Origin: Mobula birostris
Taxonomy: Eukaryota
Assembly (NCBI RefSeq): GCF_030028105.1
Contig: NC_092384.1
Coordinates: forward strand, 22,079,629 to 22,143,628
Direction of reading: 5' to 3'
DNA: 64,000 nt
Part shown: positions 1 through 47,200 of the stretch, in pieces
Numbering within the stretch: the stretch's first letter is position 1
How the letters are laid out: every line of letters starts with the position of its first letter
Program-made: the position numbers and the translations under genes
The notes under the pieces: model-generated
What the model was told of the DNA's origin: nothing
The model's input: only the letters and a program-made list of their open reading frames with translations
Databases searched by the model: none

Positions 1-1010
1 TTTCACCATGGATGTCCTGTCCCTATACACTATCCCCCATTGTGAAGGCTTTAAAGCTCTCTGCTTCCTTGTCAATAAAAGACAGACCAGTTTCTCTTCA
101 CTTCCACTCTCCTCCGTCTGGTCCTCACCCTCAACAATTTCTCCTTTGGCTCATCCCATTTTCTCCAAACTCAGTGGGTAGCCATGGGCACCCACATGGG
201 TCACTGCAATGGCCGCCTCTTTGTTCCAATCTTTCCCTGGTAAAGCTCCCCAACTCTACCTGCGCTACAATGTTGACTGATTTAGTGCTGCTTCATGCAA
301 CCATATTTCATCAACCTTGCTTCCAACTTCCACCCTGCCCTTTGATTCTTTCCGTCCATTTCTGACACCCTCTTCCCCTTTCTCGATCTGTTAACATCTC
401 TGAAGACCAACTGCCTAATGACATCTTTTATAAACCTACGGATTTCCACAGCTGGGATGAGACCTTCCTTACCAGGGTATCCACCTTCTTCAATGAATGG
501 GGTTTTTCCTCTCCCCACCATCTATGCTGCCCTCACCTGAATCCCCTCCTCTTCCCGAACATCCACCCACACCCCACCTTCCCACCGCCAGTGATAAGAG
601 TTCCTCATGCCCTTACATACCACTCCTTCAGCCTCCGCAACCAACACATTATCCACCGCAACTTCTGCCATCTCCAAAGTGATCCTACCACTACACATAT
701 CTTTCCCTCCCCCCCCAACATTCCCTTGCCCATTCACCCCTCCCCACTAATCTCCCTCTCAGCACTTATCCGTGCAAGCGATAGAAATGCCACACCTGCC
801 CCATTCACCTCCTCCCTCAACAGTCCTTCCAGGTGAGGCAACAGCTCACCTGCGAAACTTTTGGAGCTGTCTATTGTGTTGGATACTCCCGAAACGGCCT
901 CCTCTATACTGGTGAGACCAATCCTAAATTGGGGGACCGCTTTGTCAAGCATCTTCACTTCATCAGCCAAAAGCGGAATTTCCAGTGGCCCACTATTTTA
1001 AACCTATCCG
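1..1010 (+). mobile_element. Degenerate Penelope-like retroelement fragment (RT and GIY-YIG remnants)
   Basis: Frameshifted RT motifs TMDVLSLYT (from ~5) and AMGTHMG (~181); GIY-YIG-like segment TCETFGAVYCVGYSRNGLLYTGET..LGDRFVKHL (833-960). Confidence 0.85.
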
Positions 1011-1369
1011 CATTCCCTTACGTCTGGGGACGGGACGAAGGATCAGCAAGGGAACCGGGCCATGTTTGAGGCAATTCAGTCAGGCCCGGAACACCGAAAC
1101 TAAAACACCCACGACCCACGATCCAGACCCAGGAGGGATAACATCGCACGCCGGTACCGAGTCGCATGAACTTGCTTTCCGAGGGACGATTTATAGACGG
1201 ACTCTCCCGACAGTCTCATGGAGCATCCCTATATCTCATCCCCCGGCAACATTGACCGTGCAAAGAAATGTCAGCATAAGCGGAATACTCAACAGCGCGG
1301 ACACCGAGAGGCCACTTTCCCTTTTTCCTGATATTGCTAGCGAGGAAACTGAACTGCCAACCGTCGACA

Positions 1370-1690
1370 GGACAGCAGCGTCCAGCGAGTGCGCATGCGC
1401 AGCGACTGTTTCCGGCGCCCCCCCACCCTTTACGCCAAAGATTTGCCCCAAGGGCGGAGAGCCCCGGCCGCTTGCGGCGTCAGTCTTTCCGCCCGGCAGC
1501 CGTGCCACTCCCGGGTTGGGTTGGGTTGGGCGGGGTGCAGGGGGGAGGGACCGGCGCGGCTGCGGAGAGGGACAGGTGGCCCGTCGCCAGGGGGCGCAGC
1601 AGGCGGGAATTTCCTGCCCTTTACGCCGCGGCTGGGCCCTCGCCCCCCGACCGGCGGTCACGTGAGCCCGGGCGGAAGTGGAGGGGCTGG
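1370..1690 (+). promoter_or_regulatory. CpG-island promoter of the Harbinger-derived gene
   Basis: GC- and CpG-rich stretch in otherwise CpG-poor DNA. Perfect NRF1 palindrome TGCGCATGCGCA 1390-1401, ETS-like TTCCGG ~1410 and GGCGGAAGTG 1671-1680, GC box GGGCGG ~1528, E-box GTCACGTGA 1657-1665. Confidence 0.75.
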
Positions 1691-1889
1691 GGAAGCTTTG
1701 GAGAGTCCCTAAAGTTTGCTGCTGTCTGATTCCACAGAGGGAGAGGGGGGTGGGGTTGGTGCCTCCCCTCAGTTCCGTTCACTGAGACCTGCCCCTGCAT
1801 CTGCAACCTCACTCTCCCAGCCCCAGCTTATCACCACACCCATCCATCCATCCATTCATTCATTCAGCAGATATCCAAGTAGAGCAGCT

Positions 1890-3056
1890 ATGGCTTTCCC
1901 CATGAGCATCCCACTCTACACCATAATTGTGGAAGACGAAGAGGAGGAGGAGGAGGAGGAGGAACAGCAGCGAATGGAAGCAAAGAGAATAAGACAGCAT
2001 GGCAAAAGACACCACCCTACCAGGTACTACCCACCACAGCGCATCTATCGGCAACGCCGGTCCTTTGAGGATCTCTCGGAAGAGCTCTGTATTCGACGAG
2101 TGCGATTATCCAAGCGTGCCATTGCGAATCTGTGTGAGCTCCTCCGTGAAGATCTTCAGCCACACTCCACTGCCAGGACGGCATTGTCAGTCGAAATGAA
2201 GGTGACCACCGCCTTGAACTTCTTCGGCACTGGGTCATTTCAGGGGGCGACGGGGAACATGTGCAACATTAGCCAGGGAGCAGTGAGGGCAGCTATTCAG
2301 CAGGTCACAGACGTGCTCTTCAACAAAGCTGCGGGATTTATCAACTTTGGCATCACAGCCAGGCAGCAGAAGGAAAGAGCCAAGGACTTTCGCTGCATTG
2401 CCGGGTTCCCCAAGGTGCAGGGCATTATAGGAGGGACACACGTGGCTCTGAAGGCACCCGCAGAGCAGCCACTGATATTCGTGAACCGAAAAGGGTTTCA
2501 CTCGCTGAATGTTCAGCTTGTTTGCGATGCCCATCAGAAAATCCTGTATGTAAATGCCAAGCACGCAGGCAGCTGTCATGATGCCGTGATTGTACAGCAC
2601 TCGACACTCCCCGACCTCTTCCATGAGGACAACCACGTGCAAGGCTGGCTCCTTGGAGACCGGGCGTACACACTACAGACGTGGCTCATGCCTCCGCTCA
2701 GCCGTCCGAGAACCAAGGCCGAGGAGGCATACAACCAGGCCCAGGCGGCAACACGAGCTGTGGTAGAGAGGGCTATAAGACTGTTGAAAAGTAGATTTCG
2801 CTGCCTGGACAGATCCAGCGGGGCTCTGCAATACACGCCTCAGAGGGTGGCAAGGATTGTTATAGCCTGCTGCGTGCTGCACAATTTTGCTCTTCAGGAA
2901 GGCCACCTTTTCAACATAGACGACGAGGAACCACTGCTCCCAGAGGAAAGGGAGCTCCAGGCCCCGGCGTTGGAAGGGGATGACCAGGAGGATTCTTCCC
3001 TGGATGTGGCAAGGGCCATCCAAAAGCAGATCGTGCAGGAAGAGTTCAGTCACTGA
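1890..3056 (+). CDS. PIF/Harbinger transposase-derived protein (HARBI1-like, DDE_Tnp_4 type), 388 aa, first catalytic Asp replaced by Gly
   Basis: Uninterrupted ORF from ATG 1890 (GCTATGG, good Kozak context) to TGA 3056. Harbinger motifs: ALNFFGTGSFQ, AGFPKVQGIIGGTHV, FVNRKGFHSLNVQLVCD, GSCHD, WLLGDRAY, VVERAIRLLKSRFRCLD, ACCVLHN. N-terminal poly-Glu; AATAAA at 3279-3284. The N-terminus differs from canonical vertebrate HARBI1, so no symbol is given. Confidence 0.9.
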   Translation: MAFPMSIPLYTIIVEDEEEEEEEEEQQRMEAKRIRQHGKRHHPTRYYPPQRIYRQRRSFEDLSEELCIRRVRLSKRAIANLCELLREDLQPHSTARTALSVEMKVTTALNFFGTGSFQGATGNMCNISQGAVRAAIQQVTDVLFNKAAGFINFGITARQQKERAKDFRCIAGFPKVQGIIGGTHVALKAPAEQPLIFVNRKGFHSLNVQLVCDAHQKILYVNAKHAGSCHDAVIVQHSTLPDLFHEDNHVQGWLLGDRAYTLQTWLMPPLSRPRTKAEEAYNQAQAATRAVVERAIRLLKSRFRCLDRSSGALQYTPQRVARIVIACCVLHNFALQEGHLFNIDDEEPLLPEERELQAPALEGDDQEDSSLDVARAIQKQIVQEEFSH

Positions 3057-5214
3057 CAGCGAATCTCAGCATCCCCCTTCAGTGCTAGAAAGTGAGCGCT
3101 CTTTGGACCACTGTTGGCCTTAAGACATGATGACTGCTGAGCAGTCCATGATGTCCAAATACCACCGTGAAAATATTTATCACTACAGGACAAATGTTCA
3201 CACCAGTAGAATGTTCCCTTTCTTGAATGACCTTAATATTCATGAATGACGGGACATGATTAGTGAAAAATGTACATTAATAAAAATATGTTTTTCAGTC
3301 GAAGCAAATTAACATCATGCTTGTAATCTGGACCCTGAGTCATCTTTGTGGCAAATTGTCTTTTAACTATCTCATTCATCTGTTTATGTGCCACCCCAGA
3401 ATCGGGCTGCTAGGCAAAGGATGACGGTGATCCCGTGCAGACGAGATGTGGGTTAGTGGGAGCACTGCTGCTTGCTTCTTCGCAGGGAGCTCTGTGCCAC
3501 TTATTTCCCGCTGACTCCATCTGCAGATAGTGCAACGTGAGGAGGACTAGCCAATGCTGCTCTGACAGAAACCTGCAGGCAGGCAGACTTCAGTCACTTT
3601 CTCCAGCTGAGTCTCCCTACTGTACGTTTCGAATGTGATGCATCGGAACTTGCACCAGCCCGAATGTGACTTTCCCAGGAAACTTGGAAGAAATTAACCT
3701 TGTTGGTGGACTGTAACTTGCTAATGCAATAGTCAATAGGAATTTCATTGTCTTATTTGCATTGTTTTAGATAATTAGACAGTTTGCAAACTGCTCTTTC
3801 AACAGCATTCTTAAATGTAGATCATTGTTTATATAATTAAAATTTATATTAAGTGGTAAAGCTAAATGTTTTGCAAATGTATAGAAAACTGTTACTAATC
3901 AGGAGGTGTATTATGTGATGAACTTATGAACTTCAGGGTGCAGTGAATGATCTAATCTGTTACTCATCTCTGGCCACGACAGTATAGTACTTTGCATAAA
4001 ACACACAAATTTTCACTTATGTTTTATAGATATCATGTTATTTGTGCTATGTGTATGTTTTTAAACATTGAATCAATTTGTATGCAAACTGTCCCACATA
4101 TTGACCGCAGAACCCAACAAATGGTGTTTGTCTGATTGGAGGTTTGTGAGTCTTCTATGCTTCATTATTAACCTGGATACAGGTTATGGTGCTCTCACCT
4201 GCTGCCAGAAATCATGGATCAAGTCCCACCCAGAGACAAAGGCATATAACTTGAGCCAAAATTCATGTGAGGTATTGAAGCAGTGCCACGCTGCAAAACA
4301 TGAGTCTTTCGGGTGGGAAGTTACAGCCCTGTCCTTTCTACCGAACAAAGCAGAAGTTGGATGTTAACCTAGTAAATATTTACTCCTTGACTAACATATC
4401 AAATCTAATTATCCACATATATGTCTCTTGGCTTTACCTGGAATGGATTACACTGTGTCCTGTACATTTCAGTAGTAGTATACTTAACAGATATCAAGGA
4501 ATCTCAGATAACCTGTGGATGTAAATGGTGGAAATTAAATACTCTTCCTTTTGTTCATTTGTTCACACACGCTGACATTAGGATAAAATCGGTCTGTGAT
4601 TGCACTTTGGGTCAATGAACTGTTTACACGGCATGCTTATTGACAGTGCCTTCTTCAAAGTTGGTATTTAAAAGCTAAAAAAGAAGTTAAGGTTGTACTT
4701 CTTTATCAGAAGTTTTCGCTCAAGAAAGTGATTAACCTGCTGTGAATTTATGTTGGTTATTTTCAGTTTTTCAGAATTATCATTCTTTATTTTGTTTTTG
4801 TATTGCTTTACTGAGGCTCCTGATGCAGTAACTTCTAAGCCTTAAATTTAAAGCTGTACACTATTTATAAATCTGTAGTGTAGTGCAATATTTCAAGTTA
4901 ATCTGTGCTAATATTTTTTGGGATGTGAGAAGGATTCCTGCATTCTAACAAGGACCATTCTGTCTGTGATATCTTCTTATACTCCTCTTATTATACAGCT
5001 TCAGAAATAGCGGCACCTTGATGGCCCATCTCCATTCCGGGCCCTGAAAGTCACTCCAGCAAGAGAATGTACAGCCAGTCTGTAAATTAATTGAAGTAAC
5101 TTTATTCAATTCATAGACTGGTTAGCTGCACATAGCAGGGTCTCCTCTTTTTGGAGAGGTCCAATACAGAGCAAAAACATAAAAATTACTATAGTTTTTT
5201 AAAAAAATTCTTAA

Positions 5215-5824
5215 TGAGAACAATATTCTAGAAAAGTTTCAGTCAGGTTTGACAGCAAACCACAGTGTGGAGACAGCCCTGATCAAAATTGTCAGTGCTG
5301 AAGCCAACAGGGTCTCAGTTCCAATTCTCCTAGATCCAAGTTTTGCCTTTGGATGATTGACCACAACGTCCTCCTAGAGCGCCTTGAGAACTGGGCTGGC
5401 CTGTCTGGTAGTGCCCTTAATTAGTTTTGCTCACATATCTCAGAGCAAAAATTTTCTGTCTGCCTTGGAAACCACTTTTTCTAAGAGATACGATGTACCT
5501 TTTGGTATTGCTCAGGAAAGCTGTCTTGGTGCCCTACTCTTCTTATACATGCTCCTCGTAGGAGACATCATTAGAGAGCATAAACTTGATTTTCACAGTT
5601 ATGCAGAGGATACACAATTGTATATCTCCGTTGAGCCTGATGATGATAACATCCTGTCCTCTCTGACTTCTTGTATGGCTGCAAAAACAATAATTTCCTA
5701 AAACTAAATGAAGATAAAACTGAAATACTTTTGGTTGGTTCCAAAACCGAAAGAGACAAACTTCTGATGAACTTGGGAACTTAACTCTCCTTGTAAAATC
5801 AGAAGTAACTAGCTTGGATGTTAA
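5215..5824 (+). mobile_element. L2-clade LINE RT fragment
   Basis: FQSGLTANHSVETALIKI and FHSYAEDTQLYIS resemble L2 RT motifs FQSGFR..HSTETAL and HCYADDTQLY; frameshifted; interrupted by a Penelope element. Confidence 0.8.
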
Positions 5825-6527
5825 GCAACACACATAAAAGTTGCTGGTGAACGCAGCAGGCCAGGCAGCATCTCTAGGAAGAAGTACAGTTGACATTTCG
5901 GGCCAAGACCCTTCGTCAGGACTAACTGAAAGAAGAGCTAGTAAGAGATTTGAAAGTGGGAGGGGGAGATCTGAAATGATAGGAGAAGACAGGAGAGGGA
6001 GGGATGGAGCCAAGAGCTGGACAGTTGATTGGCAAAAGGGATATGAGAGGATCATTGGACAGGAGGCCTAGGGAGAAAGAAAAGGGGGAGGGGGGAAAAA
6101 ACCAGAGGATGGGCAAGGGGTATAGTGAGGGAGACAGAGGAAGAAAAAGGAGAGAGAGAGAAAAAGAATGTGTATATATAAAATAACAGATGGGGTACGA
6201 GGGGGAGGTGGGGCATTAGCGGAAGTTTGAGAAATAGCGGAAGTTCATGCCATCAGGTTGGAGGCTTCCCAGAGGGAATATAAGATGTTGTTCCTCCAAC
6301 CTGAGTGTGGCTTCATCTTTACAGTAGAGGAGGCCATGGACAGACATATCAGAATGGGAATGGGACGTGGAATTAAAATGTATGGCCACTGGAAGATTCT
6401 GCTTTCTCTGGTGGACAGAGCATAGGTGTTCAGCGAAATGATCTCCCGGTCTGCGTCGGGTCTTGCCAATATACAGAAGACCACATCGGGAGCACCGGAC
6501 GCAGTATATCACCCCAGCCGACTCACG
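5825..6527 (-). mobile_element. Penelope-like element 3' part (GIY-YIG endonuclease and pLTR with hammerhead)
   Basis: ORF 6216-6536 has GVIYCVRCSRCGLLYIGKT..FAEHL..HFN; very similar to 33580-34271; hammerhead core at 5888-5923. Confidence 0.92.
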
Positions 6528-16970: not shown

Positions 16971-19900
16971 ATGGTGTGTAGAAGAATGAGTAGAGGAGGA
17001 AAGGTTTTCCTTTTTTTTAATTTGATGGGAAATGAATTAATAGCTTGTGTATTTTTACAGGCACTGTTCAAGGTATTGATGTTGCTGCTTTGTGGAGTTG
17101 TTGTTCCTGTGTGTGGTGCTGGTAAGTAATTTTTAAAAAAAAACTTCCAGTAGGATATTTTACCATGTTACTATGATGCTATGCAGCCATCTTAAATGAA
17201 ATATCAATGATTATCTTATTGTTTCCTACAAAACTTTTAAGCTATGCTTGAAATAATATACAAACTCTTATCTTTAATAATTCACCCCTTTGAGGTGTTA
17301 TCTGAAATGGAACTAAGACATCCCTTGTTAAATCTTTTGTAAGTTCTACTAGTTGGAAGCTGTGATACTATAGTATTTATTAAATAATTTAGTGATAAAG
17401 ATTTAGATATGGAGTAAGTTACATGGGGCTCATAAGCTCACCACTGACTTTGCTGGTTTTGTCTTGGGGCTCTAGTCTTCACAGCCTGTAGAGGTAAAGT
17501 GAGGACTCTTTCTAATGGAAACACTATGGTCTGGACTCTGCATGCATGAAGGATTAGTAATTAGTTAGGCTGGTGTGTAATTTAAATATGTACTTATAGT
17601 TATTGCTATTCAATCCCAGTCCTATTAGCTGATTTATGGTTGGATAAAATTAAATAACTACTGTATTGAAGCTTAAGAAATACAGGAGCTGAAAATCCTG
17701 GGAAAAGTTCTTGGAAAGACACTAGGTTAGTTAGCATCTTGGCACTGGTTGCTACCTTAAGTCTGAGACCTTTGTCAAAATGGTCTGTGGCTTCTGTCAA
17801 TTTTTAAGTGACTCAGTTATAAACTTATGACCTCCAATATGTATGAGGTTGCAGTTCAAAGTAAAACTTATTGTATGTACATGTAACCACATACAATTGA
17901 GATTCTTTGTAGATGTAATTAGCAAGTCTATAGAACACCAGCTTAACTATAAACTGCAAATGTAGATGTAAATAAATAGCAATAAATACCAAGTATGAAA
18001 TAACAAGATAAATGAATCCTTAAATGTGTAGCTATCTCCTTTTGTTCAAGAGCCTGATGGCTGAGGGGTAGTAACTGTTCTTGAACCTAGTGGTGTGAGT
18101 TCTGAGGCACTTGTATCTCCTACCTGATAGCAGCAGTGAGAAATGATCTTGGCCTGGGTGGTGAGGATCTTTGGATGCTGCTTTTCTAAGGCAATGTTTC
18201 CTGTAGATGTGCTTAAATGTTTGGGAGGATTTTACCTGGGCTGAATCCACTACTTTGGTAGGATTTTCCTCATGAGGCTATAATGCAGCCAGTGCACTTT
18301 CCACCACTCATCTATAGAAATTTGCTGAGGTTTTTGATAATGTGCCAAACCTCCACTCTCCTCAGTAGAGGTGCTGTCATGTCTTCACAATAATATTTGT
18401 ATGATGGGTCTAGGACAGGTCCTGTGAGATAATGACACCCAGGAATTCAAAGTTGCTGATCTGGCTCATGGACCTCCTGGTTTCCCCCTCCTAAAGTCTA
18501 CAATCATTCCTTGGTCTTATTGACAGAGTGAAAGGTTGTTATTGTCCTGTTTAGCCAAATTTTCAATCTCCCTCCTGTATGCTGATATTTAATAGTTAAA
18601 TATTACTTCTATGTATTCTAATATAATTGGCCAATTTCCCCCACTAGATTGTGACCCCAATCCTTGTAAGAATGAGGGGACCTGTGTTGTTGTAGATGGG
18701 CTTGCTCAGTGCCACTGCCTTCATGGGCTCAGAGGAGAGACTTGTGAAGGTAAGCTACTTTGTGAAATCTGACTTTGTTTTGAAGGCTAATGAACTAATA
18801 ACCAACCTGCCATCTTTGTATTGCTTAATTGTAGATTGACATGTGATATAATTGAAAACTCTTAAACTGTTAAAAGATTTGGTCTGTTTCTACTGTCATC
18901 TCCAGAGTCTAATGGTCTATTTCAACTACCTTGATTTTAATCCTGTGGTTCTAGTGCTCTTTGCTAAATGGTGACTTGCACTTAGATCGTTTAAAACACT
19001 ATTATTTAAGTTCTCAATTTTTTATTTCAAGAGAAGCAGCTGGAAATGTCAAGTATTAGCAATCAAATCTTCCTGAAGTATTTTGACTACCAATAGCATT
19101 GTGTCCTTTTAAATTCATTCACTGACCATCTTTTCAGGTGCCTAACATTTTAACTGTTGTCCTAGGATTTGGGAATGATGCAAGACAAATGGCTGAACGC
19201 TTGGTGTGGATACAGCAGGCTTCTAGTCCAATGGATACTCCAAGGTCTTTTGGGGGGTGGGGGGGAGAATCCTTTAGTGTTTTCAGGTGTACAAACCTGC
19301 CTCATTAATTTCATTAGCAGATACTTTTATCTCCAAATCAATTTCGAGGAATATTTCTATCTGTGCTCTGTATGAATGTAACATTGAGTAAGTTAAGCTA
19401 CTCTTCAAAGGTAGTTTATTGACCCAAAGTTATTACCCCATGGTAATTGGGAGTCTGAATTTGAAATGACACCACTCAGTGTGAACTATGAATCCAGCTT
19501 GTTTGTCTTTCAAGAAATGTCATTCCTTCCTAGCCTGATGAGGCAACTCCAGATTATATAAACTTGTGACAGTCCATCTGAATTATCCATGTTTGGGAAG
19601 TAGTTGAAAATGGTCAAATGTTGCTTTTACATTGCCCACATGTGTGAATAAACAGGATCCCATCCCCAGATTACAAGTGTTCCGTTCATAAGAAGTAATT
19701 CACAACTCAAAACAGTTTGCCTGTTGACAATGTAGCCACCTGGCAACTTTAAATAGGCCAACTTGTAGCTAAATCAGGCCATTTAACCTGACCACCCAGG
19801 CTCCTCTGGAAGATATAGTGAGTTCCCATACAAAAGATGCCTGCAGTGGCTGGCCTATCCATCCCACCATTCACAAGCTACCAGTAAATCAGACACTTGT

Positions 19901-22900
19901 AACCTGGGGGGGACTTTGATTGAAACTGCAATGCTTATGAAGTTGGCAAGATGTGGCAGGGAAGTCATTAAAAGTGAGTCTTTTTCTGCAGATATAAAAA
20001 TGGAAGTTGAGTGCAAGCAGGCCTACATAAAAGTACTAATTATTAAGGATTATTTTGATTGGAAAAATGTAACCATGGACTCTGTACAGCTGATAGAAGA
20101 TGCTTGCAAAGCTTCAATAGAAGTTGTAAATGGAGAAGAATACTATTCCATCACTATACACCACAGTAATTACTCTAGTTGTGGTACTGTTGTGCTGGTA
20201 AGGATTTCATTACTTGTTTTCAAATTTGCTTTTAGTTTGCTTAGTTGGATAGATTCCTGCAAGCTCTGCTAATGAGCAGACAAAAATAGTTGGTTTGGGT
20301 ACAGTACTTGGATTTTTATTGGCTTTTTGTTTGCTGTAGTGTTCAGTGATGGTTGTGCAGTGTGGCTTGGAAATTATCTAGAAACTTGGGAGTTATTGTG
20401 TACTGGCTCTGAATATTAAGTTGTGTAACTGTTCTATTCACCTGAGATGGGTCATTAGATGAGATTATCAATTCCTGCAGGGTTAACTCCCTCTTCCTAT
20501 AATGGGCAAGTGTATAAACTAAGCAAGCCTATGGCTGGTCTTGCTGTAAATGGCAGGATCTGAACTGTTCAATATAGGGATTCTATGTTAAGCCACATTA
20601 ACACAGAACCTATTTTAAAATGCACCCTGTGCATATTAATAACAATGTATTTTAGTTTGGAAGAAAGACCCTCATGAATGATTTCTAATGGGAAGCTTTT
20701 GTTTTAGAGTAATGCTACACACATCATGTACATGAATGAACTGGAAACTCAACATGCGACAGGCATTATCACCAGGCTCCCTTCTGAAGCAATTGACTTC
20801 ACTTGTATATACTACCGTGAAAGGACAGTGCAGCTTGCATTTCCAATACAGCCAAAGGCTACGTAAGTTCAATAGACAAACTTTCCTTTTCTTCCTTGTA
20901 CAGATTAACTTGCAAAAATTGGAAGGGTTTCCCATTTGGTGGAATACAAGACTATCTAGTTACGAGTACAAATGTGCTGAAGGGTCATTTGATGAAGATG
21001 TACTTTCTAATTCTATGCTTTTTTTGTCTAGATACAAAACTGCAAATCTTGTACTGAGTTGCTAATGAAGTTGACAGGATACTGTGTTTGGGTGATGTCC
21101 CTTGTACTGTTCCGGTTCCAACATTGGAGCCAAAAACAATTTCTCACTCCTGACTTGAATTCTAATCAAATAATACTAGAGATTTGCTCCCCACACTTTC
21201 AGTTTTGATGTGATAACTTGATTGCGATCACCACAGAAGGATAGCTAATCTGTCTATTAGGTTGTAGACGCTGTCAATTGATGTAATGGCCATGCTAACT
21301 TTGAATACCACAGACTTGTTACCAAATCTCCTGTAGATCTGGTAGAAAGAGATAGTACTTTAGGTATACTTCAGTACAGTAAATGTTCTCAAAACTGTAA
21401 AATGAGTTTTGCATCAGTGGCAACATTGTACTTAAACACTGCAGTGAAAATGCTCCAAACATTGTCAACCCTACAATATTCCCAGCAGCCCTTCTATCTC
21501 CTTTAGTGATGCTGCAATCTAAATGCAATAAAATGGCCTTCAACATAGTTGAAGTAACTAAGAATATAAATGTTTAATTCTGTTTTGCCAATAAGCAATG
21601 TATTCAAGCATTCTCAAATTACCCCATTACCTTGGGGATATGAGTGAATGCACTTGTACTATTCAAATTTTGCTCTGGCCTGAGGCTAAATGAATCTGTT
21701 CACTTTAGAATTGCAGTATTCCATGTGCAGGAAGGAGATGTCACCGTATCAATGGCTCTCTATGAAAGTGTCAAGTATGAAACTGCTTATGTGGACCTGC
21801 CAGTTATACCTTGGTCAGAGCGCTTGTACATCAGCTTGAAGATTGAGCCTGGAGAACAGAACTTGTTTATCTTGACCATAAATGATTGCTGGGCCACACC
21901 AACCAAAAATCCAGATGACTTGCCCCAGTATTACCTAATAAAGAAGGGGTAAGGAGGATTCTTGGCTCTTCATTGCAATGTTATAACACATGGTTTTAAG
22001 TCTGTACCTTACTAACCTCTTCGATGGTCTTGTGTTTCATCTCATCAGTGGATTGCTTGCATTCAACAGTCAGTGGCCCTAATCTAAGCATGATTACTCC
22101 AACTTCATTTAATACACTATTTTTCCAAAGGCTAAATTCAAATTTGGGAAGTCTAGAATGTGCTTGGGTCTTGAATATTCAAAATTTTAGAAATGTTTGT
22201 TTCCCTCCATTCTCCAGTAATTTAAGCTTGAAGGTGGATTAATTTCATATTTGTAATTTTAGAAAATTGGTCATGAAGGACCAGAATTTCTCCAATTGAT
22301 ATTGAACACTTATTGACTAAGTTATTTTATGTACTTCTATAATTTCCTCTTCAGATGTCCCAGTGATGAGACTGTGCAGTATCACAATCAAATTGGAAAT
22401 GAGACAACAGCCAATTTCAGTGTGCAAATGTTTCGATTTACCAAGTATCCTGTGGTGTTTCTGCATTGCAGAACTGAAATTTGTGTTCCTGACAATCTGG
22501 AACCTTGTACTATTGTAAGTTTGAGTATTTAATCACTACTTTCCTTTGCTCCAAAAACACAATATTAAATAGTTTTCATTTTCCAATATATATAGGAATG
22601 TCCTAATCAATCAAAAAAAACCAAAAGAGAAACACACACCAGTGCGAAGGGGTTGTTGACTTATGGACCTATTCAATGGACACATACCAAGTCACATCTA
22701 CCTGAAACTCATAAACCTAGTAAGTATTGTTTGAGTTGGGGCAGTGTTAGTGGTCCAGCCTGGGCAAGCACAGGTACAAGTTTGAAGTTTCCAGTAAATT
22801 TTACTGGATATAGCTAGAGTGCTGAGAATGGGTCCAGTCCACAGTTGTATGTTCCTTGTGTGAGAAGTGGGAACTTTGGGAGACCTCTGATCTTCCTGAT

Positions 22901-27671: not shown

Positions 27672-29072
27672 CAGTGCCTATTAAAAAGTATTCAACTCAT
27701 TTTCATTTGTTTTACAACATTGAATCAGTGGATTTAATTTGGCTTTTTGATACTGATCAAAGTGAAAACAGATCTCTACAATGATCTAAATTACAAAAAA
27801 CAATGATTGCACACTTGCTGTCAGTATTCAGTAGATGCACCTTTGGTAGCAATTACAGCCTTGTCTGTGTGGATAGGTCTCTATCAGCTTTGCATATTTA
27901 GATACTACATTCTTTACAATTATCCCTATTCTTTACAAAACTGCTCAAGCTCTGTCAGATTGCATGGGGATCATGAATAAATGCCCCATTTCAAGTCCAG
28001 CCACAAATTCTCAATTGGATTGTGGTCTAGACTGACTTGCCACTCAAGGACATTAATTTGTGGATTTTAAGCCATTCCTGTGTAGCTGGAAATCAAATCA
28101 TCTCTTGCCTTCTCTCTTTTTTTTTTCTCCCCCCCACCCCCCCAAGTCAGTTCTCATGCACACTGCATCATGTTTTCCTCCAGCATTTCCCTGTATTTTG
28201 CTGCATTCATTTTACACTTTACCTTCATGAGCCTTCCAGGGCCTGCTGCAGTGAAGCATCCTCACAGCAAGATGCAGCCACCACTGTGCTTCCCAGTATG
28301 GAGGGTGTTTTTTGAGTGGTGTTTGGCTTACACCAAACAGTGGTTAGTCTAATAGCCAAAAGCTCAATTTTGATTTCATCAAGGCATAGAGCATTCTAGC
28401 TGGAATGTCATTTTTTTTTTCCCTTCTCAAGAGTGGCTTTCTCTTTACCACTCCTATAAGGAGAATGGTGAAACACACAGGTGACAGCTGTGTGGGCAGT
28501 CTCTCCCATCTCAACCACTAAGCTTGTACCTCCAGAGCTGGCATTGGTCTTTCAGTGGCTGCTCACTAGCCCTTCTTGTAGGGTCACTCACTTCGAGGAC
28601 TGCCTGCTTGAGTCAGAATTATAGCTGCATCAATTCTTTCCATTTGATGATACTCCAGGGATAGTTAGTGACTGGAAATTTTCTTGTATCCATGAGCTTT
28701 TTGTAGAGTTGGGTGGAGGGGTTCATGGTGTAGTTTTTACCAGGATCCTGACCCACCAGCAGTGGGATCTTCCAGAAACAGGTGTATAGTTACTACAATC
28801 AATTGAAAGGCCTTGGCTGCACAGGTGATCTCCATTTAACTAATTGAGACTTCTGAAACCACTTGACAGCACCATTGACTTGCTGTGTCATATTAAAGAG
28901 GATGAATACTTGTGTAATCAATTACTTTGTTGGTATTTGTGAATTTTTTTGTGGAGATCAGTTTTCATTTTGATGTCTTCTGGTGATCAGTGTTAAAAGC
29001 CAAATTAAATCCATTGAATCAATGTTGTAAAACAAAACCTTCCAAGGGCAGTGGTGAATACTTTGTGGACAG
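27672..29072 (-). mobile_element. Decayed Tc1/mariner transposon
   Basis: TA-CAGTGCC left end. Long inverted terminal sequences (TTTTACAACATTGAATCAGTGGATTTAATTTGGCTTTT ~27710 vs its reverse complement ~28990-29032). Minus-strand TGKHSGGCILL*GCF resembles Tc1 TVKHGGGSIMVWGCF. Confidence 0.85.
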
Positions 29073-31862: not shown

Positions 31863-32046
31863 CCCCACACAGACAGCTCCGGCACTCAAACTCTGCAAGC
31901 AAACTTCCTTCCTACCTGTCAACGGAGAAAGAAGGAACACATGTACACAGGGCGATCATCATGTATTTCCGCCAAGGGGCGGGATTTTGCTGAAAGATTT
32001 GCGGCAGGACTCGGCGAACGCCGGCAGTGGAGCTGGTTTGGGAAGA

Positions 32047-32276
32047 ATGGAGAGCGAGTGCGGGCAGAAGCGCCGCCCGGGAGCTGAAGCGTACGGCCCG
32101 GAGGGGCCTGTGTGCAGGTCTGGGCACTCCTCGGCTCCTCAGTTCACTCGCATCCGTCCCCAGGATTTGCAGCTGATCACGGAGGTGGGATCTGGAGGCT
32201 TCGGCGTAGTTTACAAAGCGCAGCACGAAGTCTGGAGGATACCCGTGGCTGTAAAGTACATGAAGCTGGATGGAAG
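32047..32276 (+). CDS. RIP kinase exon 1 (Gly-rich loop, VAVK)
   Basis: MESECGQK...EVGSGGFGVVYKAQHEVWRIPVAVKYMKLDG; donor AG|GTAAT; lies in a CpG-rich region. Confidence 0.9.
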
Positions 32277-35200
32277 GTAATCCGGGAGCGGGCCGAGTCT
32301 CACCAGTGTAAATGGGACATGAGCAACACGCTAGCTCCCCCTCGAACGGTGAAGGGTTGTTGTGTGGACTTTCTCTGCAGTGAGAGCGGCGCAGCCCCGG
32401 TTGTCGTTTGAGTCTAATCGAAGTGGATTACGAAATCCCTCTTTCGGAGCAGGGTGTGATTGCCGGTTTCTCCTGTGTCTCCAGTTTGCGCCCCTCTTCC
32501 CATTCCCTACAACTAACTGTAGGAAAGAGTAACCCAGGTCTTCTTGTGAGATCGGTTGGTGTGAGCTTGTCCTGCACCGACCCAGGGTTTCTGCATGAGT
32601 GATTCCAAACATTTCGGTTTCTATTCTGGAGTTCCAGCATCTGTTTTTTTAAGATCTCACTTCCCTGTCCCTGGTGTGTCAAAAGTAACGGATTTAGAAA
32701 TCCGAAGCAACACACACAAAATGCTGGAGAAACTCAGCAGGCCAGGCAGCGTCTATGGAAAAGAGCACAGTCGACGTTTCGGGCCGAGCCCCTTCATCAG
32801 GACTGGGAAGAAAGAGAGGTCAGAGTAAGAGGGTGGCGCAGGGGAGGAAGAAGTGTAGGGTGGTCGGTGATAGTAAGGAGATAAAGTGAGAGAGGGAAAC
32901 AGGAATGGGGGAATGGTGAGGGGGTGGGGGGTTCAGTTACTGGAAGTTCGAGACGTCAGTGTTCATGCCGTCAGGTTGGAGACTACCCAGACGGAACATA
33001 AGGTGTTGCTGCTCCAACCTGAGAGTGTGGCCTCATCGCGGCAGCAGAGGAGGCCGTGGACTGACACGTCAGAATGGGAATGGGAAGTAGAGTTGAAATG
33101 GGTGGCTCCCGGGCGATCAGGCTTTTTCTGGCGGACTAAGCATAGGCGAGGATGTCCTTCACAGGGCACCTGGCTTCTCAGTGACCACCGTTCAGCTAAA
33201 CTGTGAGAGCAGTAGCCTGGCGTCTGCTGCACGTTGGACAGCATTGATCACAGCTCAGAAACCGGACCACGACATCCTACCACCCCACCAGCCTCCGGGT
33301 CCAACATATTATTCTCCGTAATTTCCGCCACCTCCAACGGGATCCCACCACTAAGCACATCTTTCCCCCCCCCCCCCCCGCCTGCTTTCCGCAGGGATCG
33401 CTCCCTACACGACTCCCTTGTCCATTCGTCCCCCCCCCCATCCCTCCCCACTGATCTCCCTCCTGGCACTTATCTTTGTAAGCGGAACAAGTGCTACACA
33501 TGCCCTTACACTTCCTCCCTTACCACCATTCAGGGCCCCAGACAGTCCTTCCAGGTGAGGCGACACTTCACCTGTGAGTCGACTGGGGTGATATACTGCG
33601 TCCGGTGCTCCCGATGCGGCCTTTTATATATTGGCGAGACCCGACGCAGACTGAAAGACCGCTTTGCTGAACACCTACGCTCTGTCCGCCAGAGAAAGCA
33701 GGATCTCCCAGTGGCCACACATTTTAATTCCACATCCTATTCCCATTCTGACATGTATATCCACGGCCTCCTCTATTGTAAAGATGAAGCCACACTCAGG
33801 TTGGAGGAACAACACCTTATATTCCATCTGGGTAGCCTCCAACCTGATGGCATGAACATCGACTTCTCTAACTTCCACTAATGCCTCACCTCCCCCTCGT
33901 ACCCCATCTGTTATGTATTTTTATACACACATTCTTTCTCTCACTCTCCTTTTTCTCCCTCTGTCCCTCTGAATATACACCTTGTCCATCCTCTGGGTTC
34001 CCCCCGCCCTTGTCTTTCTTCCCGGACCTCCTGTCCCATGATCCTCTCGTATCCCCTTTGCCTATCACCTGTCCAGCTCTTGGCTCCATCCCTCCCCCTC
34101 CTGTCTTCTCCTATCATTTTGGATCTCCCCTCCCCCTTCCACTTTCAAATCTCTTACTAACTCTTCCTTCAGTTAGTCCTGACGAAGGGTCTCGGCCTGA
34201 AACGTCGACTGTACCTCTTCCTAGAGATGCTGCCTGGCCGGCTGCATTCACCAGCAACTTTGATGTGTGTTCCACGACATCTGTGCTGGGTGACGAGTAC
34301 CAGTCCAGTCACAGTCTCCTGTGCCTCCACGGTTCAGGTGCTTTTCGTGATGCATACACATGGGTGTGACCACCTCCTACAACACGTACACGACGCCGAC
34401 ACTAACCACTGACTGGGTGGAAAAAACCTTACTGAAATCCGGTCCAAATTGTCCCTCATTTCCCCTTGAAATCTGCTACCTCATACTTTAAACTCACAGT
34501 ATATCTACTAGTTATAGACACATTCGTAGAGTGTCTTGCTACATAATTTTGTATCTGGGAGATACAAAATCTGTTTGTGATAACCCAGCTGGTATTGTTT
34601 TAAAATAGTTTTTAAAAAAGTAAGACCATAAGATATAGGAGTAGAACAAGGCCATTCAGCACATCGAGTCCGCTCTGCCTTTCCATCATGGCTGATTTAT
34701 TATCCCTCTGAATCCCATTCTCTGGCTACTTCCCATCGTCTCTGACGCCCTGACTAATCAAGAACCTATCAACTGCCGCTTTAAGTACACTCAATGACTT
34801 GTCCTCCACAGCTGTCTGCTGCAATGAATTCCACAGATTCACTACCCTGGCTAAAGAAATGCCTCGTTATCTCTGTTATCAATGGACGTCCCTCTGTTTG
34901 GAAGCTATGCCCCCAGTCCTGGACTCCCCCACTATACGAAACATCCACTCTGCCTGGGCCTTCTGTTATTCGATAGGTTTCAATGAGATCCCCTCCCCTC
35001 ATTCCTTTAAACTCCTGTGAGTACAGGCCCAGAGCCATCAAACAACCCTCATACATTAACCCTTTTGTTCCCAGAATAATTCTTGTGAGCCTCCTCTGGA
35101 CCTTCCCCAGCACATCTTAGATAAGCGGCCGAAAACTGCTCACAATACTCCCAAGTGCGATCTGATTAATGCCTTACAAAGCCTCAGCGTTACGTCCTTG

Positions 35201-38200
35201 CTCTTTACTCCAGTCCTCTCATAAAGAATGCTAACATCGCATTTGGCTTCCTTACAACCCACTCAGCCTGTAAATTAACCTTAATTTTTGAATTTTCTCC
35301 CCGTTTATCATTTCCCACTGTAACTCAGCAGTGCAGTCTGAGACAGGCCTTTCCTGTCAGTACACCTCGGCTCAGGTTTATGGTTAGCTGTGAGAAAGTG
35401 AACATGTAAGTTGGCTGCCACCTTTCTCTCTTTCGGAGACTCTCAGCTCTCGGGAAACCCCAGTGTTCAGCAACAATGACGTCTGCAAGCAGGCGGACCA
35501 ATCAAGGTCAAAGAAACATTCGCCTTGGTAGTTAGTCAGACCAAATACTCAACTAACTAATTAAACATTTTGCAGAGAGTGAGCTAAAAATTGGAACAGG
35601 CGCATGAGATTACAGTACAAAGTGTAATATACATTTTAAAATAAAATAAAAACACATGTTTGTTAATTTAAAGTCCATTACTCTGAGATAACAATGTACA
35701 TTTAATAATAAACTAGTTTTAAGGATCAAGAATTTGTTATGAAATAGTTATTGAGTGGCACCACAATAAACATTCAATTGCACTTCATGCAGAACTTTGT
35801 TTTAATCGGCAAATTCCTGAAATAACTGACATCTAAAAGCATCATTCCTGCAAAGGGAAAAGGATGAGGGAAAGAGAGCTTTTGGCCCATCAATTCTATG
35901 CTGGTTCAAAGTTAAAGATTTTTTTATTATCAAAGTAGGTATACGTTACCATATAGAGTACTATCTTGAAATTCATTTTCTTGCAGGTATTTTGCCGGAA
36001 AAAGAAAATACAACAGACTTTTACAAAAAAACTATACATAAACAGAAAAGACAACAAGGTAGAAAAGAAGGCCAACGGCAAAAAAAGTTATACAGAGAAT
36101 GTCAGTTGTAAAGGGGCTGGAGGACTGTGTGTGTGTGTGTGTGTGTGTGGGAGAATGGAGCTTGTTTTGCTGTTGTTTTGTTGCTTGTGTTAGATGTTGT
36201 TCTGCCGAGCATTGTGGGTAATCTAGGTTGCCAACAGAATGTGTGGCGTGACGTCTGTGCTGTCCCGGCACAATGTTCGGGTGGGTTTGCTGTTAATGCA
36301 AGCATTGCATTTCACTGTATGTATCCATGTACACGCCATAACTAAATCTGATATCCTGAGTTCTTCAAAGTTAGCCTGCGGGTGGTAGAATCTGTTCAGA
36401 GTTGTAGTGACTGAAGTTTTCAACATTGCTTCAGGAGCCTGATGGTTGTGGGGTGATACCTGTTTCTGAACCTGGTGGGTGGGACCCAAGGTGTGGTGCC
36501 CCCTGCCCGATGATAGGGAGAAGAGACCATGGACTGGATGGTGAGGCCTTTGATGATGGATGCTACTTTCTTGTGACTGCACTCCAAGTAAACATAATCA
36601 GTTCTCCGGCTCGTGGAACAACCCCACTGATCCCATTCCCTGAATTTACCTTTCTGAGACTCACTCTCCCTCTCATGTATCCATCTACACCAGGAGTAAC
36701 TTACTCCATGTTTAGGACATTGTAGGAAAGTGGAGCACCCTGGGGCAACCCATATGGGTATGACTCCACAGATAGCCCCAAAGTCAGGACTGGGCCTACA
36801 TCACTGAAGTTATGAGCTATCAGCACTACCTGCTGAAACATCCATGTGCTCTCCAGGGGCATCAGATTTCTGCTATTTTAGTTTGGAGGAACAACACCTT
36901 ATATTCCATCTGGGTAGCCCCCAGCTTGATGGCATGAACATTGATTTTTCAAACTTCTGGTAATGCCCCACCTTTACCATTCCCATCCCCTTTTCCCACT
37001 CTCATCTTATCTCCTTACCTGCCCATCGCCTCCCTCTGGCCCTCCTCCCACCTTTTCTTTCTTCCATGGCCTTCTGTCCTCTTCCATCAGACCTCCCCTT
37101 CTCCAGCCCTGTACCTCTTTCACCAATCAACTTCCCAGCTCTTTACTTCATTCCCCTGCCTCCCGGTTTCACCTGTCACCTTGTGCTTCTCTCTCCTCCC
37201 CCCACCTTTTAAATCTACTCCTCATCTTCCTTTTTTCTCCAGTCCTGCTGAAAGGTCTTGGCCTGAAACGTCGACTATGCTCTTTTCCATAGACGCTGCC
37301 TGGCCTGCAGAGTTGCTCCAGCATTTTGTGTGTGTGTTGCTCTGCTGGTTTAGCTGTGACCTTATAGCTTTGCAAGTGCCATCCACTACAAGCTCTGCCT
37401 CAATATCAAATTGGATACAAAAAGATAAGAGAGATGAATATGAAAGAAATAAATGCCAGACGGAGAGAGGTAATGGAGATGGAAAAAAATTGTCAAAAGA
37501 CACTTAGTGTGAAACTATGAAATGGCAAATTTTAAGTGCCAGTTTGATTGCTTGCTGGTAGTTATGACTTAGGAATTGTTAACGACAGTATTTGTTGAAG
37601 ATCTGACGATGATTAATTGCGTCAGTATGACATCTCCCTGTGTATCATTATAGCGATAACCACAAGCTGTTGGATGAAGCAAGGAAGCTGCACAATGCAC
37701 AGTTTGAGTATGTTCTCCGATTGTACGGAATTACAGAAACTTGTTCGGAGCATGGAACCAAATTGTTGGGACTGGTGACCGAATTCATGGAGAATGGATC
37801 TTTGGAAAACCTTCTTCACCACTATGAAGTCCCTTTGCCGCTTCGCCTGCGCTCTGTGTACGAGATTGCTTTGGGAATGAACTTCCTACATAACCTGAAC
37901 CCAGCCCTTTATCATCTTGACTTAAAGCCTGCTAACGTTCTACTGAATAAGGACTATCATATTAAGGTATAAGCTATTCTGAAAACCATTAATGTTATCA
38001 GAATCTTATCATCAGAGTGGTGTGGTGATGTCATCTCAAGTGTCAGGGGAGGTGTTGGCTCGGGAGAAGCAAACACTGCTTGCAAAGTGTCGAGTTCCCT
38101 CCAGAACCAGCACCAACAAGATAAATGGCTGGAATTCAAAACCACACAATTAGCACCTGTGAGACATTTTGGATGTGTAACCTCCCTCACAATCGACAGC

Positions 38201-44200: not shown

Positions 44201-47200
44201 TGCTTTTCAAATCTTCTGTCTTTTATCCCCTTTTCTTCCCCAGGTTTGTGATTTTGGTCTGGCAAATTGGTGGGAGCTGACAAGTCAGAATAGCGGTGAC
44301 TCCAGCAAAATTCACGGCACCCTGAGTTACATGCCACCTGAATGCTTCAATGACATCAATACCAGGAGAGGCAGAAAGTTTGATGTGTACAGGTGAGTGA
44401 GTAAATGGCAAAAATGATGGTTTTGATGTTCGTTTTCAGCGTATCTCCAGAACTCCCTTTGGCTCATAATCCAGGTTAATTTAAATGACTTAGAAATGCA
44501 AATAGAAAATCTTCCTAGTCAACACTCCATCTTCTCCAGACCCAACCGATTCACTTTCCAAACTGTTCTCAAACCCCATCCGTAAAACTGTGAGCTGGAG
44601 CATTGGGATTAGTCGCATTGCTTATGTTTTATTTCATGGTAACAGGGCCTTCGGGCCCAGCGAACCTGTGCTGCCCAATTACACCCACGTTAACCAACCT
44701 ACCCGCACGTCTTTGGAGGAAACCGGAGCACCCGGAGGAAACCCAGGCAGTCACAGGAGAACATAAAACCTGTTATGGACAGCAACAGGAATTGGACATG
44801 GGTTGCTGAGACTACAATAACATGATGGTGACTGCTACTCTACTGCGCCGTCCGACATTACAGGGAGCATCAGCAATATACCACACTAGAGTGTGGTCAG
44901 TGGGGCACTGCTACCCAATTGTGACCCGTTCTCGGTGGCTTGAAAGGCCAAAGCTAATTTCATAAATTGATGCCACAAGCAGAGAATCGAGGCTCAATTC
45001 AGAGGGGTCTGGAGTGGGCTGCTTGCCTCATTCTGATCTCACCACTGTCAGGACGGTTGTTAGAGGGGATGAAGGAAAATATCTTCAGACCCTCAATAAA
45101 ATGGCTAGCTTTTTGAGTGGCTAATGAGAGCTAACACTGCAGGTAGTAAATTAACTCAGACAATATAATCTGCAGGGTTGTTTGTTTTTGGGAAGGGCTT
45201 AACCTTCATTCAGAATTTATAAGTTTATTACTGTCATGGTTCCTTGTTCTCAAAATTGAAGACACCAATTAATAGAAACATAGAAAGCCTACAGCACAAT
45301 ACAGGCCCTTCAGCCCACAAAGCTCTGCCGAACATGTACTTACTTTAGAAATTACCTAGGGCTACCTGTAGCCCTCTATTTTTCTAAGCTACCAATCCAG
45401 GAGCTCTTAAAAGACTCTATTGTATCCGCCCCCACCACTGTTGCCAGCAGCCCATTCCATGCACTCACCACTTTCTGCATAAAAAACTCACCTCTGTGAT
45501 TCCCTGTGTACCTACATCCAAGCACCTTAAATCTGTGCCCTCTCGTGCTAGCTATTTCAGCCCTGAGAAAAAGCCTCTGACTATCCACACGATCAATGCC
45601 TCTCATCATCTTATACACCTCTATCTGGTCACCTCTCATCCTCCATTCCTCCAAGGAGAAAAGGCCAAGTTCACTCAACCTATTCTCGTAAGGCATGCTC
45701 CTTAATCCAGGCAAATCTCCTCTGCACCCTTTCTATAGTTTCCACATCCTTCCTATAGCGAGGCAACCAGAATTGAGCACGGTACTCCAAGTGGGGTCTG
45801 AGCAGGTTCCTATGTAGCTGTAACATTACCTCTCGGCTCCTAAACTCAATCCTACGGTTGATGAATGCTAATACACCATATGCCCTCTTAACCACAGAGT
45901 CAACTTGCACAGCAGCTTTGAGTGTCCTATGGACACGGACCCCAAGATCCCTCTGATCCTCCACAATGCCAAGAGTCTTACCATTAATATGATATCCTGC
46001 TATCATATTTGACCTACCAAAATAAACCACCTCACACTTACCTGGGTTGAACACCATCTGCCACTTCTCAACCCAGTTTTGCATCCTATCAATGTCCTGC
46101 TGACAGCCCTCCACACAATCCACAACACCCCCAACCTTTGTGTTGTCAGCAAATTTACTAACCCATCCTCCAATTCCTCATCCAGGTCATTTATAAAAAT
46201 CACGAAGAGAAGGGTCCCAGAACAAATCCCTGAGGCACACCACTGGTGACCAACCTCCATGCAGAATATGATTTATCTACAACCACTCTTTGCCTTCTGT
46301 GGAGAAGCCAGTTCTGGATCCACAAAGCAATGTCCCCTTGGATCCCATGCCTCCTTACTTTCTCAATAAGTCTTGTATAGGGTACCTTACCAAATGCCTT
46401 GCTGAAATCCATACACATTACATCTACTGCTCTGTCTTCATCAATGTGTTTAGTCACATCCTCAAAAAATTCAATCAGACTCATAAGGCATGGCCTGCCT
46501 TTCACAAAGCCATGCTGACTATTCCTAATCATATTATGCCTCTCCAAATGTTCATTAATCCTGCCTCTCAGGATCTTCTCCATCAACTTACCAACCACTG
46601 AAGTAAGACTCACTGGTCTATAATTTCTTGGGCTATCTCTACTCCCTTTCTTGAATAAGAGAACAACATCCGCAACCCTCCAATCCTCTGGAACCTCTCC
46701 CATCCTCATTGATGATGCAAAGATCATCGCCAGATGCTCTGCAATCTCCTCACTCGCCTCCCACAGTAGCCTGGGGTATATCTCGTCCGGTCCCGGTGAC
46801 TTATCCAACTTGATGCTTTCCAAAAGCTGCAGCAAGACCTCTTTCTTAATGTCTATATGCTCAAGCTTTCCAGTCTGCTGTAAGTCATCCCTACAATCAC
46901 CAAGGTCCTTTTCCGTAGTGAATACTGAAGCAAATTATTCATTAAGACCTCTGCTATCTCCTCCAGTTCCATACATACCTGTCTACTGTCACACTTGATT
47001 GGTCCTATTCTCTCACGTCTTATTCTCTTGCTCTTCACATACTTGTAGAATGCCTTGGGGTTTCCCTTAATCCTGCTCACCAAGGCTATCTCATGGTCCC
47101 TTCTGGCTCTCCTAATTTCATTCTTAAACTCCTTCCTGCTATGCTTATAATTTTCTCGATCTCTATCATTACCTAGTTTTTTGAAACTTTCGTAAGGTTT

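Follow-up and report, generated by a model that had tools for sequence, protein, structure and literature searches.

We analysed a 64,000-nucleotide stretch of the genome of the ray Mobula birostris (the window; RefSeq assembly GCF_030028105.1, contig NC_092384.1, hereafter C19, forward-strand positions 22,079,629 to 22,143,628), in which a sequence-only reading had noticed a candidate domesticated, catalytically dead Harbinger transposase gene distinct from HARBI1. The gene is a Harbinger transposase-derived, single-exon open reading frame (ORF) of 388 amino acids at 1890-3056 (+), full-length and stop-free as described, which matches the Pfam family DDE_Tnp_4 with E=2e-36. Its copy number, orthologues, selection and transcription make it virtually certain that it is a domesticated Harbinger transposase kept as a single-copy host gene. 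Harbinger transposases are known to have been domesticated repeatedly, and this gene is a further case. The sequence-only reading had suggested that the gene is lineage-specific; the lineage is indeed restricted, but the gene is pan-elasmobranch, not species-specific, and is one of a set.

Copy number, orthologues and selection

A DNA search of the 4.0-Gb genome returned one match, the gene itself. In the protein search of the genome, in which 106 of 582 candidates were scored, 94 matches were obtained. The best after the gene itself were intact ORFs at 49% (on C11) and 46% (on C6), and the rest were distant or broken. As a criterion for autonomous Harbinger elements we used terminal inverted repeats (TIRs) of 25-50 bp with a 3-bp target duplication. 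In 900-6000 the ORF is not bracketed by any TIR-like pair, the best bracketing pair among the 25 of 35 inverted pairs listed having 17 nt at 76%; the longest inverted pair in this region (23 nt, 74%) does not bracket the ORF. Neither was a Myb/SANT match found in 264 kb around the gene (about 100 kb upstream and about 160 kb downstream), nor did any of the 8 and 6 hits of two genome-wide Pfam searches fall on contig C19. The earlier statement that TIRs and a Myb/SANT ORF are missing nearby was thus borne out.

Named orthologues (n=12) come from sawfish, electric ray, two skates, two catsharks, sawshark and five other sharks (white, whale, epaulette, bamboo and zebra). The 17 orthologue rows that we compared, namely 15 of 25 main-cluster members plus two, with four transcript-derived proteins and the query included, are 90-97% identical, and 312 of 388 positions are invariant. 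This shark-ray identity exceeds the identity of HARBI1 between mammals and chicken (83%). Across seven species, identity is 89.9-96.6% for the gene, versus 56.5-72.7% for a neighbouring RIPK-family kinase. Comparison of the coding part 1975-3056 with a contig of the RNA run X5 (see below) gave nine silent and three replacement differences, which corresponds to a ratio of replacement to silent substitution rates (dN/dS) of 0.10 (binomial p=0.0003), calculated from 12 differences in one contig. The ratio of 14 silent to 2 replacement differences in runs X9 and X10, read among 16 listed rows with 145 unlisted, was not used as an estimate.

In all six species in which both have RefSeq numbers, the gene and the RIPK-like kinase are on a sequence of the same length and their numbers are 1-5 apart: Pristis XP_051883901/896 and Narcine XP_069757314/313 among the rays, S. 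canicula XP_038662833/838 and S. torazame XP_072374544/545 among the catsharks, and Leucoraja XP_055504560/561 and Amblyraja XP_032892053/050 among the skates. Thus, by this proxy, the orthologues lie at one locus. The findings that the sequence-only reading had named as contrary to domestication (near-identical copies with TIRs, a missing orthologous locus, dN/dS near 1 or no transcription) were not seen. A young or horizontally spread transposon copy, intact by chance, would also have a single coding exon, like a transposon ORF, but the gene is single-copy, without TIRs or a Myb ORF, under purifying selection, and has the same neighbour and the same Asp-to-Gly change in sharks and rays, which leaves this explanation with next to no probability.

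The capture of the Harbinger transposase likely preceded the shark-ray split, which is dated to roughly 270-300 million years ago. The chimaera has the RIPK kinase but no named orthologue of the gene, where 10 of 25 main-cluster members were unlisted, so that this is not to be read as absence; the capture therefore probably took place on the elasmobranch stem.

Transcription

Contigs of four sequencing runs from four organisms (X1, X5, X9 and X10) cover the ORF and the 3′ region. Runs X1 and X5 can be identified as RNA: in each, one contig joins exon 1 of the downstream kinase directly to exon 2, leaving out the 5.4-kb first intron. None of the runs is recorded as RNA; the RNA status was shown for these two, and for X9 and X10 it is a guess. 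Four unique kinase intron bins were empty in all four runs. The contigs of X1 are colinear from 1641, and those of X5 from 1560, through the ORF to beyond 4200, and therefore the gene reads as one exon whose 3′ end lies well past the AATAAA at 3279. The polyadenylation signal noticed earlier is thus present, but RNA contigs read through it to at least 4145-4200. The start, end, strand and expression level of the transcript are unreadable from the contigs.

The 5′ untranslated region (1560-1889, +) is unspliced and without ATG, and it is covered at 1560-1830 by the X5 contig and at 1641-1830 by that of X1; the list of ATGs in the window has none in 1396-1889. The colinearity of these contigs with the ORF was read from record coordinates, 1831-1974 being skipped as a repeat in the comparison, and some transcripts may have a 5′ intron. 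The 3′ untranslated region extends from 3057 to 4200 (+) and beyond, the X1 contig running on for about another 200 bases. Over 3057-4200 the cover by contigs is continuous in X1, X5 and X10 and in pieces in X9. The untranslated part 3057-4180 can still be aligned in X9 and X10, whose organisms are the more distant two, and this points to constraint or slow change.

The likely promoter is a CpG island at 1000-1749, in agreement with the sequence-only reading (GC 62%, CpG observed/expected 0.87), with the palindrome TGCGCATGCGCA at 1390, CACGTG at 1659, CGGAAGT at 1673 and GC boxes; we take the factor names for these motifs to be NRF1, E-box and ETS. In the island, 1000-1213 is without contig cover in all four runs, and a separate 192-nt contig of RNA run X1 spans 1294-1485. 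Fusion with the downstream ZP-domain gene was considered and rejected, because the ORF ends in a stop codon of its own and the contigs of 1000-4200 showed no junction.

Relation to HARBI1

The databases label the gene 'putative nuclease HARBI1', and the Atlas clusters for it were HARBI1-like only, the Myb ORF having no Atlas match. However, its identity to HARBI1 is 37-44%, compared with 70% between mammal and gar HARBI1. Trees were built from rows hand-chosen from the matches (quick trees of 79, 30 and 42 rows and a careful tree of 30 rows). All four nest the gene in an elasmobranch Harbinger clade (100/98 in the careful tree), apart from the HARBI1 clade (100/100), and in the 30-row quick tree forcing the gene and HARBI1 into one clade costs 43.8 log-likelihood units (p=0.00027 in the approximately unbiased (AU) test). 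We are highly confident that the gene is not HARBI1, which was also the claim of the sequence-only reading.

The genomic surroundings, as far as identified, also seem to differ. RAG1, which has a weak link to HARBI1, lies on C13, not on C19. ATG13 and F2 themselves were not located in this genome, the Pfam genome searches giving no match for ATG13 or for the prothrombin light chain. About 176 kb upstream of the gene there is a cytochrome-b5-domain exon, which we take to be FA2H. The four neighbours identified in 464 kb (cytochrome-b5, ZP, RIPK-like and ADGRG-type) are genes other than those of human HARBI1, for which the available text of PMC12945570 gives AMBRA1, ATG13, ARHGAP1, ZNF408, F2 and CKAP5.

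HARBI1 was not found in this genome with a mammal query (116 of 141 candidates scored) or with a coelacanth query (116 of 199 candidates scored), and the best genome matches to the HARBI1 queries were the gene under study and its paralogues. No cartilaginous fish was named among the best 120 of 203 HARBI1 matches, in which some listed rows were unnamed. Absence of HARBI1 from this genome may therefore be treated as a lead. In their accessible parts, PMC3212892 and PMC9710019 give the range of HARBI1 as bony fish to mammals, and PMC9392472 states that it is present in cartilaginous fishes, its supplement naming no shark sequence; we suggest that statements placing HARBI1 in cartilaginous fishes should be checked again. 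If the gene were a diverged shark and ray orthologue of HARBI1, this would account for the database label, for the failure to find HARBI1 in this genome and for the placement by PMC9392472, but the low identity, the AU test and the different neighbours speak against it, and we regard such orthology as very improbable.

The gene thus represents a second, independent vertebrate capture of a Harbinger transposase, kept under a generic label. In the available text of PMC9179366, HARBI1 is the sole Harbinger-transposase gene listed for vertebrates, the elements were undetected in the one cartilaginous fish examined, and testing of further cartilaginous species is called for; a possibly domesticated Harbinger in squamates is mentioned in the part of PMC12262214 that is accessible. 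No description of the gene was found in the full-text literature searched, a search that had subscription journals and bioRxiv supplements outside its range.

Active site

The motif at codon 181 reads GIIGGTH (GGA, 2430-2432), exactly as reported before, and the triad reads G-D-E, with the second residue D257 (2658-2660) and the third residue E293 (2766-2768) kept. We take columns 181, 257 and 293 to be the catalytic triad, in line with the Harbinger literature, and this assignment fits the predicted model. Among 99 non-redundant homologues, kept from 215 full-cover matches, column 181 has Asp in 86 and Gly in 11, column 257 has Asp in 91 and column 293 has Glu in 75. In the orthologue rows the D-to-G change is conserved (17/17), and D231, D257, E293, N199, N282 and N332 are kept in all 17 as well. 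The sequence-only reading had stressed that GGA is two changes away from an Asp codon; the count is true but carries little weight, as it amounts to one transition and a silent change, and Gly is the commonest replacement of Asp in this column. Similarly, its remark that GDRAY in place of GDSGY is unusual applies to R258, a residue confined to this lineage (14 of 17 orthologue rows have Q there), but not to Ala at 259, which 12 of 99 homologues share.

In transposases with an RNase H fold, the first Asp serves as the central metal ligand. For Ping, the available text of PMC4671723 reports that one triad mutation drastically lowers transposition, and therefore DNA cutting has likely been lost here. 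Judged from its sequence, the protein most probably has no nuclease activity. The description of the gene as catalytically dead is in this sense likely to hold, but it depends on one substitution only, two residues of the triad being kept.

The retained residues could be explained differently: D231, D257 and E293 might still hold metal, or the dead site might take part in repair or processing by gripping nucleic acid, such as RNA-DNA hybrids or DNA ends. The invariance of the six residues listed above would fit such an altered nuclease or nucleic-acid binder, as would that of the RNase H core (155 of 188 positions invariant) and of a basic segment upstream of it (32 of 34). On the other hand, the residue that was lost is the central metal ligand, the core is no more conserved than the N-terminal domains, and the paralogue groups C, E and H (described below) are conserved despite the loss of other triad residues; conservation in this clade therefore needs no catalysis. 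We consider an altered nuclease or nucleic-acid binder unlikely.

Predicted structure and proposed mode of action

A first fold, calculated from a 19-row alignment, was poor, with a predicted local distance difference test (pLDDT) score of 48.8, and was superseded by a model from 125 rows (pLDDT 88.6, predicted template modelling score 0.85). The latter shows a long N-terminal helix, a helix-turn-helix (HTH)-like domain (61-150) and an RNase H core. G181 lies on the first strand (176-187), D257 after the strand 253-255, and E293 on a long helix (276-302). The best structural matches were piggyBac (Z 9.6, root-mean-square deviation (rmsd) 5.0, 232 residues aligned) and Tn5 (Z 9.0, rmsd 5.8, 247 aligned), with Tn3-family transposases also among the best, and the HTH-like domain matched HTHs of the sigma-4 type (best Z 6.4, rmsd 2.8, 57 aligned). 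Sequence searches of the PDB gave no match for the protein and chance-level matches only for the profile, and Foldseek gave no match at E<=0.001, an integrase being the best at 3.5e-3.

The N-terminal part begins with a hydrophobic segment (residues 5-16), followed by a Glu run of variable length (residues 17-25), together at 1902-1964 (+). The model has low pLDDT at residues 1-11, and residues 5-16 are invariant at 10 of 12 positions; this end of the protein is a candidate for partner docking. The poly-Glu N-terminus noticed earlier is present but not special: the hydrophobic and Glu-rich start is inherited, not new, because it is common to the paralogues B-E and H. The basic segment comprises residues 27-60 (1968-2069, +) and is a candidate for nuclear import or nucleic-acid contact, and the helical HTH-like domain of the predicted structure comprises residues 61-152 (2070-2345, +; 80 of 92 positions invariant). 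N-myristoylation at a Met-Gly start, as in the paralogues, was considered and dropped, as this copy has Ser at that position.

We propose that this single-copy, transcribed host gene arose from a Harbinger transposase captured before the shark-ray split, separately from HARBI1, and that its product, which has lost the first metal-binding Asp, would no longer cut DNA. Through its conserved N-terminal part it would bind a Myb/SANT protein whose gene lies elsewhere, at the C-terminal helices of that protein; the partner would supply DNA targeting, and the pair would bring or tune a chromatin-modifying complex, in the manner of ALP1/ALP2 and HDP1/HDP2. [quoted passage not shown] A non-cutting adaptor is favoured here because this interaction is kept elsewhere and because the N-terminal part is highly constrained in this gene; for such an adaptor a role at chromatin would, by analogy, be the likeliest output. 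By analogy, binding in trans to Myb/SANT C-terminal helices, with targeting supplied by the partner, seems slightly more probable than its opposite, the involvement of a chromatin-modifying complex is more tentative and falls somewhat short of an even chance, and the best explanation overall, a non-cutting nuclear adaptor that binds a Myb/SANT protein of the Harbinger type in trans, we would put at about even.

Several points weigh against this proposal. The partner role and the chromatin role rest on analogy. Most insect co-domestications are linked to a Myb gene, as stated in the accessible part of PMC9710019, unlike the situation here. Inactivation of HARBI1 in zebrafish gave no visible phenotype, as stated in the accessible part of PMC9392472, and the vertebrate analogue is therefore without a shown chromatin role. 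Part of the active site is still constrained, because D257, E293 and the conserved D231 are invariant. In addition, the numbers behind dN/dS are small, and synteny was deduced by a proxy, in which accession numbers and lengths of chromosomes stand in for an alignment of the loci.

Among known systems, HARBI1 (with NAIF1) of bony vertebrates is likewise a Harbinger-derived host gene, similar in length, Pfam family, conservation and lack of TIRs, but it keeps D-D-E (D-D-D in gar), whereas the gene described here has G-D-E, belongs to a separate clade and another locus, and has a Glu-rich and basic N-terminal extension that is absent from HARBI1. The plant pairs ALP1/ALP2 and HDP1/HDP2 also contain a domesticated Harbinger nuclease with a broken triad (DGA in ALP1) and a retained fold; their Myb partners and complexes (Polycomb repressive complex 2, PRC2, and the IDM1 acetyltransferase complex) have been shown experimentally, whereas for the present gene both are proposed by analogy. 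The insect PLG/MADF genes (DPLG7/DPM7, APLG, LPLG) likewise represent repeated independent captures of PIF/Harbinger transposases in one animal lineage, but in these the Myb gene often adjoins the transposase gene, as it does not here. Finally, Harbinger3_DR and rice Ping/Pong share the transposase fold of an HTH-like domain and an RNase H core, but these autonomous elements differ from the present gene, which lacks TIRs and a second ORF, exists in one copy and has lost the first Asp.

Paralogues and candidate partners

Besides the gene (A), the elasmobranch Harbinger clade holds at least five further groups that are conserved between species (B, C, D, E and H). Group B, from rays, has D-D-K and is represented in this genome by an intact 411-aa ORF (L002, C11:50.81 Mb). 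Group C has G-S-R in its intact 429-aa ORF here (L003, C6:208.64 Mb) and D-D-R in sevengill. Group D, from sawfish and four sharks, has mostly D-D-E, but the Asp of its GSxHD motif is replaced; in this genome it is a frameshifted remnant (L007/L018, C4:43.77 Mb), 63-81% identical in pieces, and is a candidate for a domesticated gene that was lost again in this ray. Group E, from carpet sharks, has D-D-R, and group H, from five sharks, has D-D-K in the three rows read. On the basis of their sequences, all five groups are candidates for conserved host genes. Together with the gene they form a natural series, with the first Asp lost, the Glu lost, all three residues lost, or the gene itself lost here, which lets one ask why Harbinger transposases persist once cutting stops.

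An alternative is a host-kept repressor, in which a dead subunit would poison transposase-Myb complexes or soak up the Myb protein. In its favour, shark genomes contain many decayed copies from the source clade, this one clade supplied several retained genes, as expected from repeated invasion rounds, and the predicted fold is whole. Nevertheless, the only intact members of the clade found here besides the gene, B and C, are without triad residues (106 of 582 candidates having been scored), close relatives still show selection on the gene, and near-invariance would be less in keeping with an arms race than with a fixed host partner. We consider repression improbable, to about the same degree as the altered nuclease.

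For the adaptor, candidate co-domesticated partners are provided by at least five Myb/SANT genes of the Harbinger type, in which the first exons are open and a helical exon encodes the C-terminus. They are located on contigs other than C19: L039+L087 (C11), L041+L088 (C21), L043/L076 (C12), L042, L044/L079 (C9) and L045/L080 (C35). None of them lies beside genes A, B or C or the remnant of D, and we recognised no clear NAIF1 among them. The gene on C12 has a 616-codon BTB-zinc-finger frame at a distance of about 6 kb. In a broader and more speculative picture, which we regard as possible but less likely than not, sharks and rays would be without HARBI1 and would carry at least six Harbinger regulators captured from one elasmobranch radiation, each disabled at a different active-site residue and paired in trans with a set of domesticated Myb/SANT genes, the gene described here being the oldest and most constrained. 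If true, the gene would encode a nuclear factor central to sharks and rays, for which bony vertebrates have no counterpart.

A further Harbinger transposase ORF (L006, C22:43.90 Mb; 444 aa, intact), which belongs to a distant clade, keeps D, D and E and, with several broken relatives, possibly represents a younger Harbinger invasion. In pigeons, a close Harbinger-derived pair from two genera (P0041 and P0063, 400 and 449 aa) has a G-D-R triad and is a possible separate capture in birds.

Neighbouring genes

Of the decayed hAT and Tc1 transposons that the sequence-only reading had reported elsewhere in the window, a Tc1-type transposase remnant with stops was located at 27989-28312 (-), but no hAT remnant was found among the 148 of 152 window ORFs scanned. 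Downstream of the gene, and between it and the kinase, lies a ZP-domain gene (+) with ZP-N and ZP-C domain exons at 19787-22529. The RIPK-family kinase (+) has exons at 31914-32277, 37654-37968 and about 44240-44390, with a C-terminal death domain (L056:4407-4796), and an ADGRG-type receptor lies on the minus strand beyond it. The kinase is labelled RIPK2-like, RIPK4-like or RIPK1 in the databases and is fast-evolving (57-73% identity). All 14 matches to it combine a kinase and a death domain, and all 13 that are named come from cartilaginous fishes, chimaera included.

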